Source: a virus
Taxonomy: Duplodnaviria; Heunggongvirae; Uroviricota; Caudoviricetes
Virus record (IMG/VR): IMGVR_UViG_2728369188_000008
Coordinates: 1 to 41,423 of that record
Length of the DNA stretch: 41,423 nucleotides
Strand: one strand, 5' to 3'
The stretch's first letter is position 1. Each line of letters opens with the position of its first letter. Both the position numbers and the translations under genes were made by a program. Below are positions 782 through 36,008 of this stretch, piece after piece. A model generated the notes under the pieces. That model was not told the DNA's origin and ran no database searches. It saw only the letters and a list, made by a program, of their open reading frames with translations.

Positions 782-1336
782 TTAGCCACGGTTAACCTCC
801 TGAGGCGGTTCTGGTAGAGGCATCCAGTGAGTTGCCTGCTCAATACCATTACCCGGCTTAATCGTTACTTCTCCTCGCCGGAATGTGCTTCCTGTATAGC
901 GTGCGGAGCATATTAGCGGTTCAACCAGATCACTATCGAAATTCACCGAAATAAGTACGTTCTGGTTCTTTTCTGGCATTTGCTCACTACAGCTTATCCA
1001 ACTATCCGGAGTTCCCGGAGAGTTGCCATTTACATCGAAGTTTGGCTCTGCGTCCTGAACCAGGAGGATGTAACCATTCTTGGCAGTATCAAGTTCTGAC
1101 ACCTCGGTGACGGTGCCGAAATAGCGATTACCTAAATCAGCATCACAAGTGCTTACATCAATGGAAACTTCCATGCCTTCGATTAATTCTGGCAAGTTGT
1201 AAGTTTGGCTTACAGGCTCTGCTTCCAGCGATGCCAGTGCAATTCGTGCCAGTTCCATTTGTTCGCCACGAGTAAGTCCGTTATCAAGCGGATTTTTAAT
1301 GAATAATTCGATACGTTCTTTGGTAATAGTGGTCAT
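782..1336 (-). CDS. Hypothetical protein, possible DUF551-like C-terminal domain
   Basis: ATG at 1336 preceded by AAGGAGAG RBS and overlapping the upstream stop (TGAGATGA); C-terminal HWMPLPEPP motif. Track ORF 782-1378 trimmed to the RBS-supported start. Confidence 0.55.
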   Translation of the reverse strand: MTTITKERIELFIKNPLDNGLTRGEQMELARIALASLEAEPVSQTYNLPELIEGMEVSIDVSTCDADLGNRYFGTVTEVSELDTAKNGYILLVQDAEPNFDVNGNSPGTPDSWISCSEQMPEKNQNVLISVNFDSDLVEPLICSARYTGSTFRRGEVTIKPGNGIEQATHWMPLPEPPQEVNRG

Positions 1337-1337
1337 C

Positions 1338-2066
1338 TCACTCTCCTTTGATGCGAATGCCAGCGGCGCGGGAATCATTCCATCGCTTTACTTCTTCACG
1401 AATTACGTCAATGCATTCTTTCGAATCCATTAGGTAATCTTCATCAAAAAGACGTTCCTGTTCGTTTTCTATCGCAACAATGATTGCTTCAACTAACTTT
1501 TGTGCCTGAGAACCACTTTCTAACTCTGCTATGCGCTTACTTCCATCCGCGATTACTCCCTCGTAATATTCACGCTGCTCGTTGAGTTTTGATTTTGCGG
1601 CTTCCAGCGCCGCAACCAATTCGTCTACAGTTCCGGCAGCTTGCAGTGCGTAATCGGTAATAGACATCTCATGATCAATTTCAGTACCGTTCTCATTAGT
1701 TGAGGTGATAGCAAAATAATCAGAGTCGATTTCGTTATCAGCTAAGTGGCGTAGCGTATCGGCAACAAGCTGACCGTTTTCGATTAACAGCTTCCCTACC
1801 GTTAGCGCAATATCCTCGTTCTCCTGGTCGCGAGATTTGATGTATTGCTGGTTTCTTTCCCGTTCATCCAGTAGCGCCAGCACGGTTTCTGGTCCGGCCA
1901 GAATTTTGAAGGCGTTGAGCGCATCAATATCAACACCGCTATCTTTAAGTTCCTGCTCGCTTATCAGATCATCATCAACTGGCAACATTAACAGGCGTTC
2001 CATTGCCTGAATTGCACGCTCTGCCGCCTCACGCAGTGCCTGATAGTTAATTGTCATTCTCGCCAT
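1338..2066 (-). CDS. Hypothetical acidic helical protein (242 aa), Ea22-like by position
   Basis: Long ORF in early-left operon; acidic, coiled-coil-like composition. Confidence 0.5.
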   Translation of the reverse strand: MARMTINYQALREAAERAIQAMERLLMLPVDDDLISEQELKDSGVDIDALNAFKILAGPETVLALLDERERNQQYIKSRDQENEDIALTVGKLLIENGQLVADTLRHLADNEIDSDYFAITSTNENGTEIDHEMSITDYALQAAGTVDELVAALEAAKSKLNEQREYYEGVIADGSKRIAELESGSQAQKLVEAIIVAIENEQERLFDEDYLMDSKECIDVIREEVKRWNDSRAAGIRIKGE

Positions 2067-2740
2067 CCTTCACAGTTGTAATCACTACAGCCTTCAAAAT
2101 CATATGGGCTGTACTGCCAGGTAATTTTTCCGCAATGCGGACAATTCCAACGCACCTTCCCGCTTCGCGACTTCTTTCTTCTGTTCTGCTTTTTCAACCA
2201 GTCAGGCATGACCAAACCTGCGCCCTGAACCATTGTTCTGCGGTTAAAGTTATTGATATTGAACGTCCGGCGCTTTGCTGAATCAGCAATGGAAAATGGC
2301 AACCAAACTATTCCTGGTTCGTTTTTGTTGGCGACGCTAAAGATGGTCGCTTTACTGAAGTCATCTGTTGGCAATCCACCGTGTTGAAGCCAGTAAACAT
2401 CGTTGCCGTTCCAGCTACCTTTTTTGTAGGCCACATACGCAGTGCAATCTGACTCAATCAGGCTTTCTGTAGGGATGTACTGGCAATCAACGTGCCACAC
2501 AGCCATTGCATCCACGCTATCAGCGCAAACAGGCTGATCGATATCTCGTCCACAATTCCAGGCTTTTTGGGCTTCTTCCAGCGTGTAAACATGAGCGCGA
2601 TCGATATCAGAACTGTAACCATTGCCGTTATGGCAATGGAATGAGGCGTTATTACCCACAGTTTCACGCAAGCACATCATGTAAAAACGGTTACTCACTG
2701 GTTGCCTCCTTTGCTGGGCTTTCGAATGTATCAAACTCAA
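2054..2740 (-). CDS. Hypothetical Cys/His-rich protein (up to 228 aa), start uncertain
   Basis: Long ORF; C-terminal CPHCGK...C..YNCEG zinc-ribbon-like cluster; 5' end overlaps upstream gene so the true start may be the internal MM pair near 2680. Confidence 0.45.
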   Translation of the reverse strand: MSLIHSKAQQRRQPVSNRFYMMCLRETVGNNASFHCHNGNGYSSDIDRAHVYTLEEAQKAWNCGRDIDQPVCADSVDAMAVWHVDCQYIPTESLIESDCTAYVAYKKGSWNGNDVYWLQHGGLPTDDFSKATIFSVANKNEPGIVWLPFSIADSAKRRTFNINNFNRRTMVQGAGLVMPDWLKKQNRRKKSRSGKVRWNCPHCGKITWQYSPYDFEGCSDYNCEGWRE

Positions 2741-2990
2741 ACAACTTAACTACGTCATCAAACAGGACATAATCGCCATCAGAATCTTCAGTCATGTCAG
2801 CGCCACAATCCTGACCGAACGAGTCACAACCATCCATATCAAGCTCGTATCGCTTCAGGTTTGCGATATTTGATAAATTCAGCGCCAGTACAGCCAGGTC
2901 ATAAACCTCGTCAGCGGTATACCCTGCACCATGCCCATACATTTCAATGCGGGATATGATTTCTTCTACACGTTGTTTTGTGATCGTCAT
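2691..2990 (-). CDS. Hypothetical acidic protein (99 aa)
   Basis: ORF tightly packed (4-nt overlap) with the downstream 232-aa gene. Confidence 0.45.
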   Translation of the reverse strand: MTITKQRVEEIISRIEMYGHGAGYTADEVYDLAVLALNLSNIANLKRYELDMDGCDSFGQDCGADMTEDSDGDYVLFDDVVKLFEFDTFESPAKEATSE

Positions 2991-3685
2991 TTTTGCTCGC
3001 CTCCCTGTTCTTCCAGAAAAATACGCATAGCCTCAAGCATCTCTTCGGTGTCATACGGAGACAGCTTGTCACGCAGGATGTGTTCAATGCTGTTAATGAA
3101 CTTTCGGATTGCTTTGCGTTCAATTTCATCCAGGAAAGCATCGGTGGCTGGGGTTTCGACATTAGGTCGAAGCTCATAATCACAAACTCTTTCAATCCAT
3201 GGTGATACTCTGTCGCATTTCCTCTTCTTGCGTTCACCGACCTTGGTTGCCTGCTGAATAATTACCCCCCAGCAAATGCTTTCGACCTCTTCGCTCCATC
3301 CATCGCAAGCATCGCCTCTATAGTCGTCAATTGCAGCCTCAGCAGCAGCGATAGCCTCCTCAGCAGTTTTGTGACACTCGAAACTAAATTCAGAGCCATA
3401 TGAGAAATACATAGCCCCGGCCTTCAGCGCCGCATTCTCCGCCGCCAGCGCTGAAAACTTCTCGTGTGCCAACTTAACAGCCGAATCAGCCTGCTTAATT
3501 GACTCAATCGCTCTCTGCTGGTCTTCGGACAGAGCCGAAATCTTGGCCTCCGCTTCAGCAAATTTACGCACCAGATATTCAGCGTTTGTTTCGTTAACCT
3601 TTAAATCTCGTGGTATGCATTTACCTTTCAGAAATCCATCCATCTCAATTAGTGACATTAGTTTCATTTCTTCCCACTCCGCCAC
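2987..3685 (-). CDS. Hypothetical protein (232 aa)
   Basis: Long ORF in early-left operon; helical composition; no motif recognised. Confidence 0.5.
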
Positions 3686-3861
3686 ATAGCATTCAGATAT
3701 TTGTTGTCATTAACAGAACCGAAACTATTTCTCTTAAGCAATTCCTCTCTCGATGGCATTGGCTTTACGCTTTGGCGAATAATCATTTCTGCCGGAAGAA
3801 TGCCGGGATTGTATGCAAGTCCTCTCATGGTAAATTCCTCAGTCATTACTGATAGCGCCAT
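3664..3861 (-). CDS. Hypothetical small protein (65 aa)
   Basis: ORF packed between neighbours in the same operon. Confidence 0.35.
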
Positions 3862-4135
3862 AGCGTGAGCGGTAATTACGCAGGCGCGGGTCGATATATT
3901 CAGGGAAGTGGGTATATGTGGCTTTACGGAATGGTCGGATTGATGTTTCGTTTATTCGGTCTTTTTCCTGTTTTTCTGCGAGTTGTATATCGCGTCGGTA
4001 CTTCCGTTCTTCTTTTGTTTCTGGTGGCAGAGCAAGAAACGCGTCGAGATTATTCTTGATATTTTCCAGCACCTCCGATACGGAATTGCCGGAGCAGTTG
4101 CGCGGGTCATCCTCACCATACAGAGGCGCTGGCAT
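3839..4135 (-). CDS. Hypothetical protein (98 aa)
   Basis: ORF immediately downstream of the ssb-like gene in the recombination cluster. Confidence 0.45.
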
Positions 4136-4158: not shown

Positions 4159-4542
4159 TCAGAATGGGATGGAATCGTCGTATTCAGGATGATTTTGATG
4201 ATTGCTACTTTGCTGCTGTTGGCTGTTTCCTGAAGTTGCAAATCCAATCTTTGCATTCAGTAATTCAAGAGTGATTGATTGACCATTTTGCCCCTGATAA
4301 ACATCAACCCTGATGTTTTCTCCGGTAATTTCCACAATGCCACCTTCAACAAGAACACTACGGTAGTAATCCGCTTGCGCTCCCGGCTTGGCAAATACAA
4401 CGGCGCTGTAGTTTGTCCATTCTTTCTTTTTTGTCTGGCGATCGTAATACTGAACGCCAGCACGGATGTTGAATCCGATATTTTCCCCGGCCTGAAACTC
4501 TCTTGCGGGCTTGTTTAGTCTTACAGTAATCGAATGTGCCAT
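4159..4542 (-). CDS. ssb: Single-strand DNA-binding (SSB-like) protein
   Basis: ATG at 4542 overlaps erf stop (TAATG); C-terminus QQQQSSNHQNHPEYDDSIPF resembles the acidic DDDIPF tip of bacterial SSB. Track ORF 4159-4632 trimmed. Confidence 0.55.
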   Translation of the reverse strand: MAHSITVRLNKPAREFQAGENIGFNIRAGVQYYDRQTKKKEWTNYSAVVFAKPGAQADYYRSVLVEGGIVEITGENIRVDVYQGQNGQSITLELLNAKIGFATSGNSQQQQSSNHQNHPEYDDSIPF

Positions 4543-5147
4543 TAAGCAGCCGCTCCTTCTAATTCGTCTCGTCTGATGTTGTAAACGTCCTGCGCTTTGT
4601 GCTGCTCCGGTGTGCCTTCGAGCAGCTTCCACGCTTTGGCGAACGCCTGTTTAAGCTCTTCTACGGTGTTTTTCTGCATTGCTGCGTCAGTGAATGCTTT
4701 TAGAACCTGTTCAGGTGTAGGTAATGGTTTTGATTGCTTTGCTGCTGCGTTCTGCTGATGTTTATGCTCGTCGGTATCTGCATCTTTCGCATCATCAATG
4801 CCGAATAAACCATTGAGGCAATACTTGCGTGCATAAGAGCTTGTAGCTCCCGTAACTTGTGCAGAATCCATTCCTTTCTTGCTTTCTTCCTCTCGTGCAA
4901 GAGCGGTTGCTTTATGACTGTTTTCGCCATCAGTAATAGTTGCCGTTGCTTTCACGTAATACCGATCACCAATCAACACAACTTCATCGCTGATTGATAA
5001 AAACAGGCCATTCAGTAACGGCTTAACACCCTCAAGAATGTCTTCGCAGCTTCTGTATTTATATTTGCCGAATGAGTTGTATTGATTCTTTGGCGCGTTC
5101 AGATTCTCCTGAATAGCTGCCAGCCTTGCGTAAAATTCTTTGCTCAT
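4542..5147 (-). CDS. erf: ERF-family single-strand annealing recombinase
   Basis: Protein beginning MSKEFYARLAAIQENLNAPKNQYNSFGKYKYRSCEDILEG matches my memory of P22 Erf; start taken at the internal Met of track ORF 4542-5177. Confidence 0.8.
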   Translation of the reverse strand: MSKEFYARLAAIQENLNAPKNQYNSFGKYKYRSCEDILEGVKPLLNGLFLSISDEVVLIGDRYYVKATATITDGENSHKATALAREEESKKGMDSAQVTGATSSYARKYCLNGLFGIDDAKDADTDEHKHQQNAAAKQSKPLPTPEQVLKAFTDAAMQKNTVEELKQAFAKAWKLLEGTPEQHKAQDVYNIRRDELEGAAA

Positions 5148-5248
5148 ATGTTTGTTCTCAGAATGGACATTCCCCAAGGAAATAACGCTGATTTAATACT
5201 TCGACTCGGGACAAATTAAGGCATACCCGCATTCCTTCGCGGTCGCCA

Positions 5249-6257: not shown

Positions 6258-6584
6258 TCAAATAAGTGGTTTGCTGCCTAATTTCATTTTCTGGCGACCA
6301 ACACAAGTCACACCCATTTCACTGCGTGGCTTGCTGTACCATGTGCGCTGATTCTTGCGCTCAATACGTTGCAGGTTGCTTTCAATCTGTTCGTGGTATT
6401 CAGCCAGCACTGTAAGGTCTATCGGATTCAGTGCGCTTTCTACTCGTGATTTCGGTTTGCGATTCAGCGAGAGAATAGGGCGGTTAACTGGTTTTGCGCT
6501 TACCCCAACCAACAGGGGATTTGCTGCTTTCCATTGAGCCTGTTTCTCTGCGCGACGTTCGCGGCGGCGTGTTTGTGCATCCAT
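6258..6584 (-). CDS. N: Antitermination protein N
   Basis: MDAQTRRRERRAEKQAQWKAANPLLVGVSAKPVNRPIL... matches lambda N with its Arg-rich boxB-binding motif; downstream of nutL/PL. Confidence 0.95.
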   Translation of the reverse strand: MDAQTRRRERRAEKQAQWKAANPLLVGVSAKPVNRPILSLNRKPKSRVESALNPIDLTVLAEYHEQIESNLQRIERKNQRTWYSKPRSEMGVTCVGRQKMKLGSKPLI

Positions 6585-7061: not shown

Positions 7062-7090
7062 GCAAAGAAAACCCGGCGCTGAGGCCGGGT
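7062..7090 (-). terminator. tImm-like intrinsic terminator after rexB
   Basis: Minus-strand hairpin cccggcctcagcgccggg followed by ttttcttt, overlapping the rexB stop. Confidence 0.75.
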
Positions 7091-7524
7091 TATTCTTGTT
7101 CTCTGGTCAAATTATATAGTTGGAAAACAAGGATGCATATATGAATGAACGATGCAGAGGCAATGCCGATGGCGATAGTGGGTATCATGTAGCCGCTTAT
7201 GCTGGAAAGAAGCAATAACCCGCAGAAAAACAAAGCTCCAAGCTCAACAAAACTAAGGGCATAGACAATAACTACCGATGTCATATACCCATACTCTCTA
7301 ATCTTGGCCAGTCGGCGCGTTCTGCTTCCGATTAGAAACGTCAAGGCAGCAATCAGGATTGCAATCATGGTTCCTGCATATGATGACAATGTCGCCCCAA
7401 GACCATCTCTATGAGCTGAAAAAGAAACACCAGGAATGTAGTGGCGGAAAAGGAGATAGCAAATGCTTACGATAACGTAAGGAATTATTACTATGTAAAC
7501 ACCAGGCATGATTCTGTTCCGCAT
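7090..7524 (-). CDS. rexB: RexB, membrane component of the Rex exclusion system
   Basis: 144-aa multi-pass hydrophobic protein matching lambda RexB; downstream of rexA in the PRM transcript. Confidence 0.95.
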   Translation of the reverse strand: MRNRIMPGVYIVIIPYVIVSICYLLFRHYIPGVSFSAHRDGLGATLSSYAGTMIAILIAALTFLIGSRTRRLAKIREYGYMTSVVIVYALSFVELGALFFCGLLLLSSISGYMIPTIAIGIASASFIHICILVFQLYNLTREQE

Positions 7525-7539
7525 AATTACTCCTGATAA

Positions 7540-8379
7540 TTAATCCTTAACTTTGCCCACCTGCCTTTTAAAACATTCCAGTATATCACTTTTCATTCTT
7601 GCGTAGCAATATGCCATCTCTTCAGCTATCTCAGCATTGGTGACCTTGTTCAGAGGCGCTGAGAGATGGCCTTTTTCTGATAGATAATGTTCTGTTAAAA
7701 TATCTCCGGCCTCATCTTTTGCCCGCAGGCTAATGTCTGAAAATTGAGGTGACGGGTTAAAAATAATATCCTTGGCAACCTTTTTTATATCCCTTTTAAA
7801 TTTTGGCTTAATGACTATATCCAATGAGTCAAAAAGCTCCCCTTCAATATCTGTTGCCCCTAAGACCTTTAATATATCGCCAAATACAGGTAGCTTGGCT
7901 TCTACCTTCACCGTTGTTCGGCCGATGAAATGCATATGCATAACATCGTCTTTGGTGGTTCCCCTCATCAGTGGCTCTATCTGAACGCGCTCTCCACTGC
8001 TTAATGACATTCCTTTCCCGATTAAAAAATCTGTCAGATCGGATGTGGTCGGCCCGAAAACAGTTCTGGCAAAACCAATGGTGTCGCCTTCAACAAACAA
8101 AAAAGATGGGAATCCCAATGATTCGTCATCTGCGAGGCTGTTCTTAATATCTTCAACTGAAGCTTTAGAGCGATTTATCTTCTGAACCAGACTCTTGTCA
8201 TTTGTTTTGGTAAAGAGAAAAGTTTTTCCATCGATTTTATGAATATACAAATAATTGGAGCCAACCTGCAGGTGATGATTATCAGCCAGCAGAGAATTAA
8301 GGAAAACAGACAGGTTTATTGAGCGCTTATCTTTCCCTTTATTTTTGCTGCGGTAAGTCGCATAAAAACCATTCTTCAT
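7540..8379 (-). CDS. rexA: RexA, sensor component of the Rex exclusion system
   Basis: 279-aa protein matching lambda RexA; directly downstream of cI. Confidence 0.95.
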   Translation of the reverse strand: MKNGFYATYRSKNKGKDKRSINLSVFLNSLLADNHHLQVGSNYLYIHKIDGKTFLFTKTNDKSLVQKINRSKASVEDIKNSLADDESLGFPSFLFVEGDTIGFARTVFGPTTSDLTDFLIGKGMSLSSGERVQIEPLMRGTTKDDVMHMHFIGRTTVKVEAKLPVFGDILKVLGATDIEGELFDSLDIVIKPKFKRDIKKVAKDIIFNPSPQFSDISLRAKDEAGDILTEHYLSEKGHLSAPLNKVTNAEIAEEMAYCYARMKSDILECFKRQVGKVKD

Positions 8380-35758: not shown

Positions 35759-35946
35759 AAAACCGCAGATGTTGTTTTTGTGGGTGTAGTAAAGAAACGA
35801 CTGGCAGGGGCTTTGTTGTGTCAAAAAATACCGAAGAAGCAATTTGTGACTCATGCGTTACAGATATTGTTATTTTCATGCATGGCGAGAAGGGGTTAGA
35901 TGAAAAGCTAGAGAGTATTCCAGTTGAAGGCGCTGATAAAAGTTGA
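35755..35946 (+). CDS. Small Cys-rich (zinc-ribbon-like) protein, translationally coupled to arc
   Basis: 63 aa with CCFCGC...CDSC; GAGGGGG RBS; ATG overlaps arc stop (ATGA). Confidence 0.5.
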
Positions 35947-36008
35947 AGCCCCAACTGCGGGAACAGTCAGGGCTTCGGTATCAACAAATCGGATTAGGAA
36001 ATATTGAC

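Follow-up and report, generated by a model that had tools for sequence, protein, structure and literature searches.

Five independently exchangeable accessory genes, including abc2 and a predicted Cys4 zinc-ribbon family, in the early-left (pL) operon of a P22-like phage carrying lambda-type immunity

The DNA considered here is a 41,423-nt sequence from the IMG/VR virus record IMGVR_UViG_2728369188_000008, referred to below as the window, and all coordinates are window positions. The subject is the stretch at 2054-4135, which lies at the end of the pL (early-left) operon farthest from its promoter and in which a first-pass annotation made from the sequence alone had described a run of five minus-strand open reading frames (ORFs) of 228, 99, 232, 65 and 98 aa, all of them unassigned and tightly packed downstream of the erf/ssb recombination genes. 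In the order in which the minus strand is read, these ORFs are assigned as abc2, a DUF2737 gene, a probable EaE/Ea22-type gene, a gene for an acidic protein of 99 aa (orf99) and a gene for a Cys-rich protein with a predicted C-terminal zinc ribbon.

Results

Five coupled genes

All five ORFs are present exactly where and as long as first described (Table 1), and their close packing downstream of the recombination genes is confirmed, with an SSB-like gene standing between erf and the first of the five. For every ORF there is a PHROG match at E ≤ 5e-37, and the protein homologues of the ORFs number hundreds to thousands. The ratio of nonsynonymous to synonymous substitution rates (dN/dS) against diverged copies is 0.07-0.24 for the Cys-rich gene, 0.10-0.26 for the EaE/Ea22-type gene read as 226 aa, 0.14-0.35 for the DUF2737 gene and 0.38 for abc2; orf99 was left out of the scoring since its alignments were gapped. 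Because of these family matches, the many homologues and the dN/dS values of the four scored ORFs, all five are real genes. The maximal ORFs start at weak TTG/GTG codons and overlap ORFs in alternative frames, as might be raised in favor of some of them being chance open frames and not genes, an idea to which the PHROG families, the wealth of homologues, dN/dS values of 0.07-0.38 in the testable ORFs and the plausible ribosome-binding sites before the refined starts leave practically no probability.

The true products are likely shorter than the maximal ORFs in three cases. The 228-aa ORF probably starts at GTG 2698, with AAGGAGG ahead of it, and RefSeq uses the same start; the product has 214 aa, by which length the gene and protein are called below, and the start overlaps the orf99 stop by 8 nt. 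The 232-aa ORF (orf232) probably starts at ATG 3667, giving 226 aa and an ATGA overlap with the DUF2737 stop. For the 65-aa ORF the start is probably ATG 3828, preceded by a TGAGGA ribosome-binding site and giving 54 aa, as both the DUF2737 and the PHROG profile begin there and the length fits the 56-aa P22 orf56. On inspection of the starts, the stop/start overlaps of the five ORFs are ATGA or GTGAGTAA with Shine-Dalgarno sites upstream, and translational coupling runs through all five. Scans for Rfam families, tRNAs and repeats turned up neither a non-coding feature nor a notable repeat within the region, and a pattern scan found no strong terminator-like site within 2054-4135; the lone terminator-like site (3419-3391) lies inside orf232 and has 4 G-C pairs in 11.

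Table 1. Features of the early-left region, with the five ORFs first (maximal ORF coordinates)
Feature	Position	Strand	Assignment, basis or context
abc2, 98 aa	3839-4135	minus	PF11043, PDB 8b1t
DUF2737 small basic protein	3664-3861	minus	maximal ORF 65 aa; PF10930
Probable mosaic EaE/Ea22-type acidic protein (orf232)	2987-3685	minus	maximal ORF 232 aa; identity to P0121, mosaic relatives
Acidic protein orf99, 99 aa	2691-2990	minus	phrog_3126
Cys-rich protein	2054-2740	minus	maximal ORF 228 aa; phrog_2457
Exchangeable single-gene cassette carrying the 214-aa gene	2020-2714	minus	from the ribosome-binding site to the first codons of the following Ea22-like gene
Ead/Ea22-like gene, 242 aa	1338-2066		PF13935 at 1.5e-31; next after the 214-aa gene
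DUF551 gene	782-1378		downstream of the Ead/Ea22-like gene
Basic 114-aa ORF	337-681	minus	phrog_1229; between the DUF551 gene and xis
SSB-like gene, 127 aa	4159-4542 (ORF to 4632)	minus	phrog_44; start ATG 4542
erf recombinase gene	4542-5177		PF04404 at E = 3.6e-44; upstream of the five ORFs
N	6258-6584		lambda-type immunity/early region
rexB	7090-7524		lambda-type immunity/early region
rexA	7540-8379		lambda-type immunity/early region

Abc2 and the DUF2737 protein

The 98-aa ORF is identified from its sequence as Abc2, the characterized P22-type modulator of RecBCD that binds RecC. It matches PF11043 over the full length of both (E = 6.9e-43; score 145.2 bits, cut-off 25; residues 1-98 aligned to all 97 profile positions), phrog_656, named 'abc2 anti-RecBCD', and the cryo-EM chain 8b1t_A of the PDB entries 8b1t/8b1u (E = 3.8e-39; residues 1-98 to 1-97), and it is 69% identical to P22 abc2 by tblastn. 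Reading of the sequence places Pro68 within an IRPFRK motif, and an Erf-type recombinase gene lies one gene upstream, in the order found in P22. The P22 protein attaches to RecC at its Chi-recognition domains and leaves the helicase unblocked, has been proposed to divert the single-stranded DNA (ssDNA) product of RecBCD to the phage recombinase, and engages the host protein PpiB through Pro68 (PMC9836394). Compared with P22 Abc2 as described in the structures 8b1t/8b1u (Wilkinson et al. 2022, PMC9836394), the window variant is alike in its full-length alignment at about 70-75% identity, in Pro68 and in the adjoining Erf module, and it differs in about a quarter of its residues, so that its binding to RecC is to be read as predicted. 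It would bind host RecBCD via the RecC subunit, with host PpiB engaging Pro68, and would redirect RecBCD in such a way that the ssDNA product reaches the Erf annealing protein encoded just upstream.

The 65-aa ORF is assigned to DUF2737 as the equivalent of P22 orf56, with matches to PF10930 (E = 2e-29; 101.7 bits against a cut-off of 25; residues 12-63) and phrog_1117 and 74% identity to P22 orf56, both genes standing directly after abc2. Literature searches for DUF2737, the PHROG identifiers, RefSeq accessions and signature peptides returned nothing relevant. The description of the five ORFs as unassigned is therefore wrong for Abc2, which PF11043 and 8b1t identify and which is the one ORF with homology to a characterized phage protein; it is too strong for the DUF2737 equivalent of P22 orf56, and it remains apt for the 99-aa acidic protein (phrog_3126) and the 214-aa Cys-rich protein (phrog_2457).

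A probable EaE/Ea22-type protein

Its mosaic relatives and short motifs indicate that orf232 is probably a mosaic EaE/Ea22-type protein. Read from ATG 3667, it is 100% identical to a 226-aa protein (P0121) that is on record from 99 contigs, and its relatives, at least 7,997 in number, often bear ead/Ea22-like source labels. It matches phrog_614, phrog_14548, phrog_492 and phrog_368, with phrog_368 and phrog_14548 common to it and the Ea22-like protein of the window. Local similarity to P22 EaE extends over 63 aa (E = 2e-4), with the motifs AAENAALK and TPATDAFL, and three relatives that are 82-93% identical over 74-86% of the query (P0133, P0148, P0159) carry PF13935, while the version of phage IME10 lacks the middle third. 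Searches with orf232 itself gave no Pfam family at E ≤ 0.1, the Ead_Ea22 model (PF13935) not being reached, no PDB sequence match at E ≤ 0.1, and no significant BLASTP similarity to the 242-aa Ea22-like protein encoded in the window. By analogy with lambda Ea22, which serves as the model of an oligomeric pro-lysogenic factor (PMC7093339, PMC10834534), such a protein may form coiled-coil oligomers and bias the choice between lysis and lysogeny via a host partner. The operon holds two different mosaic genes of the Ea22/EaE type, at 1338-2066 (242 aa) and 2987-3667 (226 aa).

Relatives of orf232 also carry the RefSeq/PGAP label 'hNH endonuclease', which was rejected, as orf232 matches no HNH family in Pfam or NCBIfam and no nuclease in the PDB; the name is probably a propagated misnomer. 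In Escherichia coli Nord1 (locus L095, 4434-4859), RefSeq annotates just the C-terminal 141 aa of the orf232 relative, a gene call that is probably too short.

Mosaic exchange of single genes

The five ORFs are not a functional unit, and the genes assort independently. In a set of 80 IMG/VR loci with a 94-100% identical 214-aa gene, orf99 is the upstream neighbor in 4, and the slot upstream is occupied by at least eight unrelated families, DUF2737 being among the commonest. In 76 of these loci the sequence becomes similar to the window 11-16 nt ahead of the GTG start, and in 66 the similarity ceases 25-46 nt beyond the stop of the 214-aa gene. Because the borders of similarity fall at gene borders, the unit of exchange is read as a single gene with its ribosome-binding site, and the 214-aa gene forms a one-gene cassette with sharp borders. 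The unrelated genes ahead of it all end in ...EA(T/S)SE and a stop codon, a shared ending that arises because the cassette border, including AAGGAGG, falls within the final codons of the gene in front. Positions 2699-2714 form a clean mosaic junction that rewrites the C-terminus of the neighbor. On the downstream side an Ead/Ea22-like gene follows in 78 of the 80 loci, an adjacency that may reflect linkage rather than function, given that the cassette border lies inside the first codons of Ea22; in Vibrio phage R19R, too, a homologue with 40% identity stands next to an Ea22-like gene.

Of 5,426 complete E. coli genomes, 2,075 contain parts of the 2.1-kb stretch, and just one of the 5,426, Nord1, has a single place covering at least 80% of it; there, the genes from DUF2737 through the 214-aa gene are joined to a RecT/Gp157 module and not to Erf/Abc2. 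Treatment of the five ORFs as one run is accordingly not upheld, in view of the rare pairing with orf99, the borders at gene boundaries and the lone genome with most of the stretch. It is very improbable that the five form one co-adapted functional module whose products work together, as could be argued from their tight packing on one strand, where stop codons overlap start codons, and from one IMG/VR contig (L008) in which the whole block is 100% identical. The comparative data already largely refute such a module, as the Nord1 copy lacks abc2, the 214-aa gene rarely meets orf99 and has many alternative upstream families within borders set by gene boundaries, and orf99 and the 214-aa gene are both absent from P22, which does have abc2-orf56-eaE.

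At greater distance, a survey of 51 species-level loci showed no recurring neighbor of the 214-aa gene except generic repressor and integrase genes, and no conserved partner gene was found in the 80 close or the 51 diverse loci. Distant phages carry the homologue in early, integrase- or repressor-proximal regions. In Vibrio phage D96a (L089, 3686-6271), an exonuclease gene and a Mu Gam-like end-protection gene are followed by the homologue and then by a DNA methyltransferase gene, and in Pseudomonas phage F116 (L090, 1-4642) the homologue lies downstream of three methyltransferase genes. An Acinetobacter locus has an N6_N4 methyltransferase gene within 5 kb. Such neighbors of the distant homologues are suggestive of DNA-related accessory functions, but they are not consistent, and the recurrent link to DNA-protection genes is a loose one.

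The acidic protein orf99

With a pI of 4.05 and a net charge of about -16, orf99 is strongly acidic. It matches phrog_3126 (E = 3.5e-62) and gave no match in Pfam, NCBIfam or PADLOC. Of its 264 homologues, the 120 listed share 78% identity or more, belong to prophages and phages of enterobacteria, and carry no annotation, and the alignment has 37 invariant columns. On the ground of its charge orf99 may be a DNA mimic like the anti-restriction proteins Ocr, ArdA and gp5.9, but no family of that kind was matched, unrelated neighbors in the ea region are as acidic (Ea22-like protein, -27; DUF551 protein, -17; orf232, -15), and the AlphaFold2 model is of low confidence (pLDDT 54.7), too poor to test mimicry. 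A pairing of orf99 with the 214-aa gene, for which their 8-nt overlap and their acidic and basic charges had been considered, was rejected, the two being adjacent in only 4 of the 80 loci.

A widespread protein with a predicted Cys4 zinc ribbon

The 214-aa protein is composed of an acidic N-terminal globular domain (about residues 1-150; pI 5.2), a basic linker (151-181; pI 12, about +9 charge, predicted helix) and a C-terminal segment in which two short beta-strands are predicted. The C-terminal motif of the family is CPxCG-x14-C-x4-C. In an alignment of 30 diverse homologues, down to 47% identity, C186, C189 and C204 are present in all 30 and C209 in 28, and 24 positions are invariant. The His of 'CPHCG' is found in just six, and because it is not conserved, the metal site is taken to be Cys4 and not Cys/His. 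These features support a Cys4 zinc ribbon at the C-terminus, with zinc binding predicted. The zinc ribbon proposed in the first-pass annotation is thus strengthened by the invariant cysteines, the two predicted strands and a weak resemblance to the ribosomal protein eL43, whereas its description of the protein as Cys/His-rich gives way to a Cys4 site.

The resemblance takes the form of a weak, repeated match (E about 0.2) between residues about 156-208 of the family profile and the eL43/L37ae zinc ribbon among PDB sequences. eL43/L37ae has a basic N-terminal segment and a C4 zinc ribbon and binds rRNA. The two proteins share a basic segment followed by a Cys4 ribbon, and the lead-in and the region of the first CxxC knuckle align with eL43 of several species; they differ in the spacing of the second Cys pair, which is C-x4-C in the 214-aa protein, and eL43 lacks a counterpart of the 150-residue N-terminal domain. 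The likeness is an analogy of architecture only.

The AlphaFold model of the 214-aa protein is confident (pLDDT 92.7), yet neither the PDB nor the named viral models yielded a structural relative; PDB searches likewise revealed nothing similar in sequence or fold among Ea8.5, TraR/Orf73 and transcription factors. Within the N-terminal domain there is a possible, weak internal duplication of residues 6-43 and 88-125 (hhalign E = 4e-4, probability 34%). Some Cys and His residues of this domain are partly conserved, including C9 (26 of 30, otherwise Ser), H21 (28 of 30), H36 (26 of 30) and position 72, which is Cys or His in 28 of 30 and is flanked by the invariant D71 and Q73. As conserved in 26-28 of the 30 homologues, they could mark a second metal or active site.

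Homologues have a constant length of about 210-220 aa, come from Enterobacterales, Yersinia, Pantoea, Acinetobacter, Methyloprofundus and others, and down to 47% identity are all labelled 'hypothetical'. A HMMER profile search yielded 869 clusters at 50% identity with E ≤ 0.001, 201 of them with E ≤ 1e-10. The family belongs to temperate phages of Proteobacteria and is without a Pfam model, and the extra parts of eight longer members gave no Pfam domain. Deposited phages contribute 161 records, including P22-like and P1-like (SJ46) phages, many Vibrio phages, Pseudomonas F116 and Burkholderia phiE058, and the best annotation among these homologues is 'putative zinc finger protein'.

Operon context and comparison with known regions

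The stretch belongs to the pL operon of a P22-like phage with lambda-type immunity, and its counterparts are the 'ea' region in P22 and the exo-xis region in lambda. A pattern scan found a lambda-type pL-like promoter (TTGACA-17-GATACT) at 6881-6853. Beyond the 214-aa gene the operon continues with the Ead/Ea22-like gene, the DUF551 gene, the 114-aa ORF and xis. The 114-aa ORF, which likewise lacks an assignment, gave no match in Pfam and recurs at 96-100% identity in many related loci. Upstream, the start of the SSB-like gene overlaps the erf stop as TAATG. The earlier placement in an early-left region where lambdoid phages keep host-modulating genes is right; the region is of the non-essential ea/exo-xis type, and Abc2 is a RecBCD modulator located there.

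In P22 (NC_002371) the gene order is erf-abc1-abc2-orf56-eaE-orf45-eaF-eaD-eaI-eaA-...-xis-int. The window resembles it in tight packing and in the operon position and order of erf, abc2, orf56 (DUF2737), an eaE-like gene, an eaD/Ea22-like gene, an eaA/DUF551 gene and xis. It differs in three ways: an SSB-like gene stands in place of abc1 between erf and abc2, the positions of P22 orf45 and eaF are taken by orf99 and the 214-aa gene, and a lambda-type pL/N/rex immunity region, rather than P22 c2, drives the operon. Comparison with the ea/abc region of P22, which had been suggested as a check, thus shows abc2, orf56 and the eaE-like gene to be shared, whereas orf99 and the 214-aa gene have no P22 homologue. 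The lambda and Stx phage exo-xis region (Ea22, Ea8.5, Orf73, Orf63) is similarly non-essential, lies between the recombination genes and xis, and has mosaic Ea22-type coiled-coil proteins and small zinc-binding proteins; its published phenotypes concern lysogenization and induction (PMC7093339, PMC10834534, PMC8614690). The window departs from it in the 214-aa protein, which is unlike Ea8.5 and Orf73 in sequence and fold, and in orf232, which falls below the Pfam Ead_Ea22 threshold.

The virion and replication genes across the window are P22-like (Lederbergvirus), and the phage is a hybrid lambdoid/P22-like one in which lambda-type immunity is joined to P22-like structural genes. No phage-collection record covers at least 80% of either window segment 1-8500 or 8500-33000. 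A sar RNA (Rfam RF00262, 71.6 bits) is located at 35941-36007 on the minus strand. sar RNA is an antisense RNA of the P22 immI region, and the phage therefore carries a P22-type ant/immI module besides the lambda-type immunity. Sequences identical or near-identical to the locus are already in public databases, and what is new about the locus is the combination, its parts being of known kinds and its region of a well-known one.

Discussion

Taken together, the data indicate that the stretch is likely not one system and instead a pL-distal row of five accessory genes, translationally coupled and each exchangeable on its own. For the 214-aa protein, the preferred but tentative reading is that of a nucleic-acid-directed binding protein that would act alone and early in infection. 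Its basic linker and Cys4 ribbon would hold DNA, RNA or a nucleic-acid-bound host enzyme, and the acidic N-terminal domain, with a fold that has no known relative, would supply the specific activity or target recognition. In favor of this reading stand the conserved Cys4 motif, the pI of 12 and charge of about +9 of the linker, the weak eL43 match that includes the basic lead-in, the absence of a conserved partner in the 51 species-level loci and the consistent location in early, integrase- or repressor-proximal regions of temperate phages.

Several points weigh against this explanation. Transcription of the stretch from pL is inferred from the layout, and orf232, below the Pfam Ead_Ea22 threshold, takes its assignment from mosaic relatives and short motifs. 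The resemblance to eL43 is not significant (E 0.2-2.6). Identity of about 50% from E. coli to Acinetobacter and Vibrio, taken with the invariant polar residues Y28, Q44, D71, Q73, N99, D100 and K142, would fit an enzyme as well as a binder, and no annotated homologue bears on the 214-aa, 99-aa or DUF2737 proteins. Zinc ribbons also mediate protein-protein contacts, examples being TraR and lambda Orf73 on RNA polymerase (PMC8614690).

Two other functions for the 214-aa protein have to be weighed against nucleic-acid binding. In one, the protein, possibly together with orf99, would be a counter-defense or host-takeover effector that blocks a host immune or DNA-repair component early in infection, a proposal that we regard as doubtful. 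The acidic orf99, with its pI of 4.05 and net charge of about -16, would possibly be a DNA mimic, and DNA mimicry has been noted as a possibility for Arf and other small acidic phage proteins (PMC9836394). The genes share an operon segment with Abc2, and the Mu Gam-like gene, exonuclease and methyltransferases near the distant homologues in D96a, F116 and Acinetobacter would fit as well, but that association is loose, with nothing recurrent in the 51 species-level loci. The acidity of the ea-region neighbors means that orf99 is not singled out, and its model does not allow mimicry to be tested. The first-pass annotation had pointed to host takeover or anti-defense; for orf232, orf99 and the 214-aa protein no family of such function was matched in Pfam, PHROG, NCBIfam or PADLOC (PADLOC over the five ORFs gave no match besides SngA for orf232 at E = 0.0058, listed without a matching stretch), and signature peptides were not found in the literature searched, including the supplements of one published accessory-gene screen. 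Furthermore, the 214-aa family is strongly conserved, whereas known anti-defense proteins usually diverge fast.

The other proposal, that the 214-aa protein regulates the lysis-lysogeny decision or host transcription in the manner of exo-xis proteins, we consider unlikely. Proteins of that region include Ea8.5, with a homeodomain/zinc finger, Orf73/TraR, a C4-zinc binder of RNA polymerase, and Ea22. The 214-aa gene lies in the exo-xis-equivalent region, and an Ea22-like gene follows it in nearly all of the 80 loci and adjoins the homologue in R19R; in E. coli, however, this adjacency may be simple linkage, with the border inside the Ea22 start, and PDB searches gave no similarity to Ea8.5, TraR/Orf73 or any transcription factor. 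Published work does describe exo-xis proteins, zinc-binding transcription modulators among them, that affect lysogenization (PMC8614690, PMC7093339, PMC10834534). The readings as binder, counter-defense effector and regulator overlap and are computationally inseparable. A bolder proposal, to which we give a low probability, is that phrog_2457 founds a new protein family and fold, with an internally duplicated N-terminal domain, a basic linker and a Cys4 ribbon in a self-contained cassette present in temperate phages of Enterobacterales, Vibrio, Acinetobacter, Pseudomonas and other bacteria, and acts on a host nucleic-acid machine conserved among these hosts, for instance as a new counter-defense or takeover factor or as an enzyme.

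The locus itself is textbook lambdoid mosaicism in a non-essential early-left region, and its one understood gene, abc2, was already known. The value of the analysis is one of triage, as two of the five families, phrog_3126 and phrog_2457, are left without an assignment. Of all elements, phrog_2457 is the only one with real novelty potential, having no Pfam model, no structural relative and conservation that is unusually strong for an accessory gene. It is also an attractive experimental target, being widespread, conserved, confidently modelled and carried as a clean single-gene cassette, with parts of the stretch in many E. coli genomes. Its function, once learned, would annotate hundreds of phage and prophage genes together and could reveal a new form of early-infection host manipulation by temperate phages.

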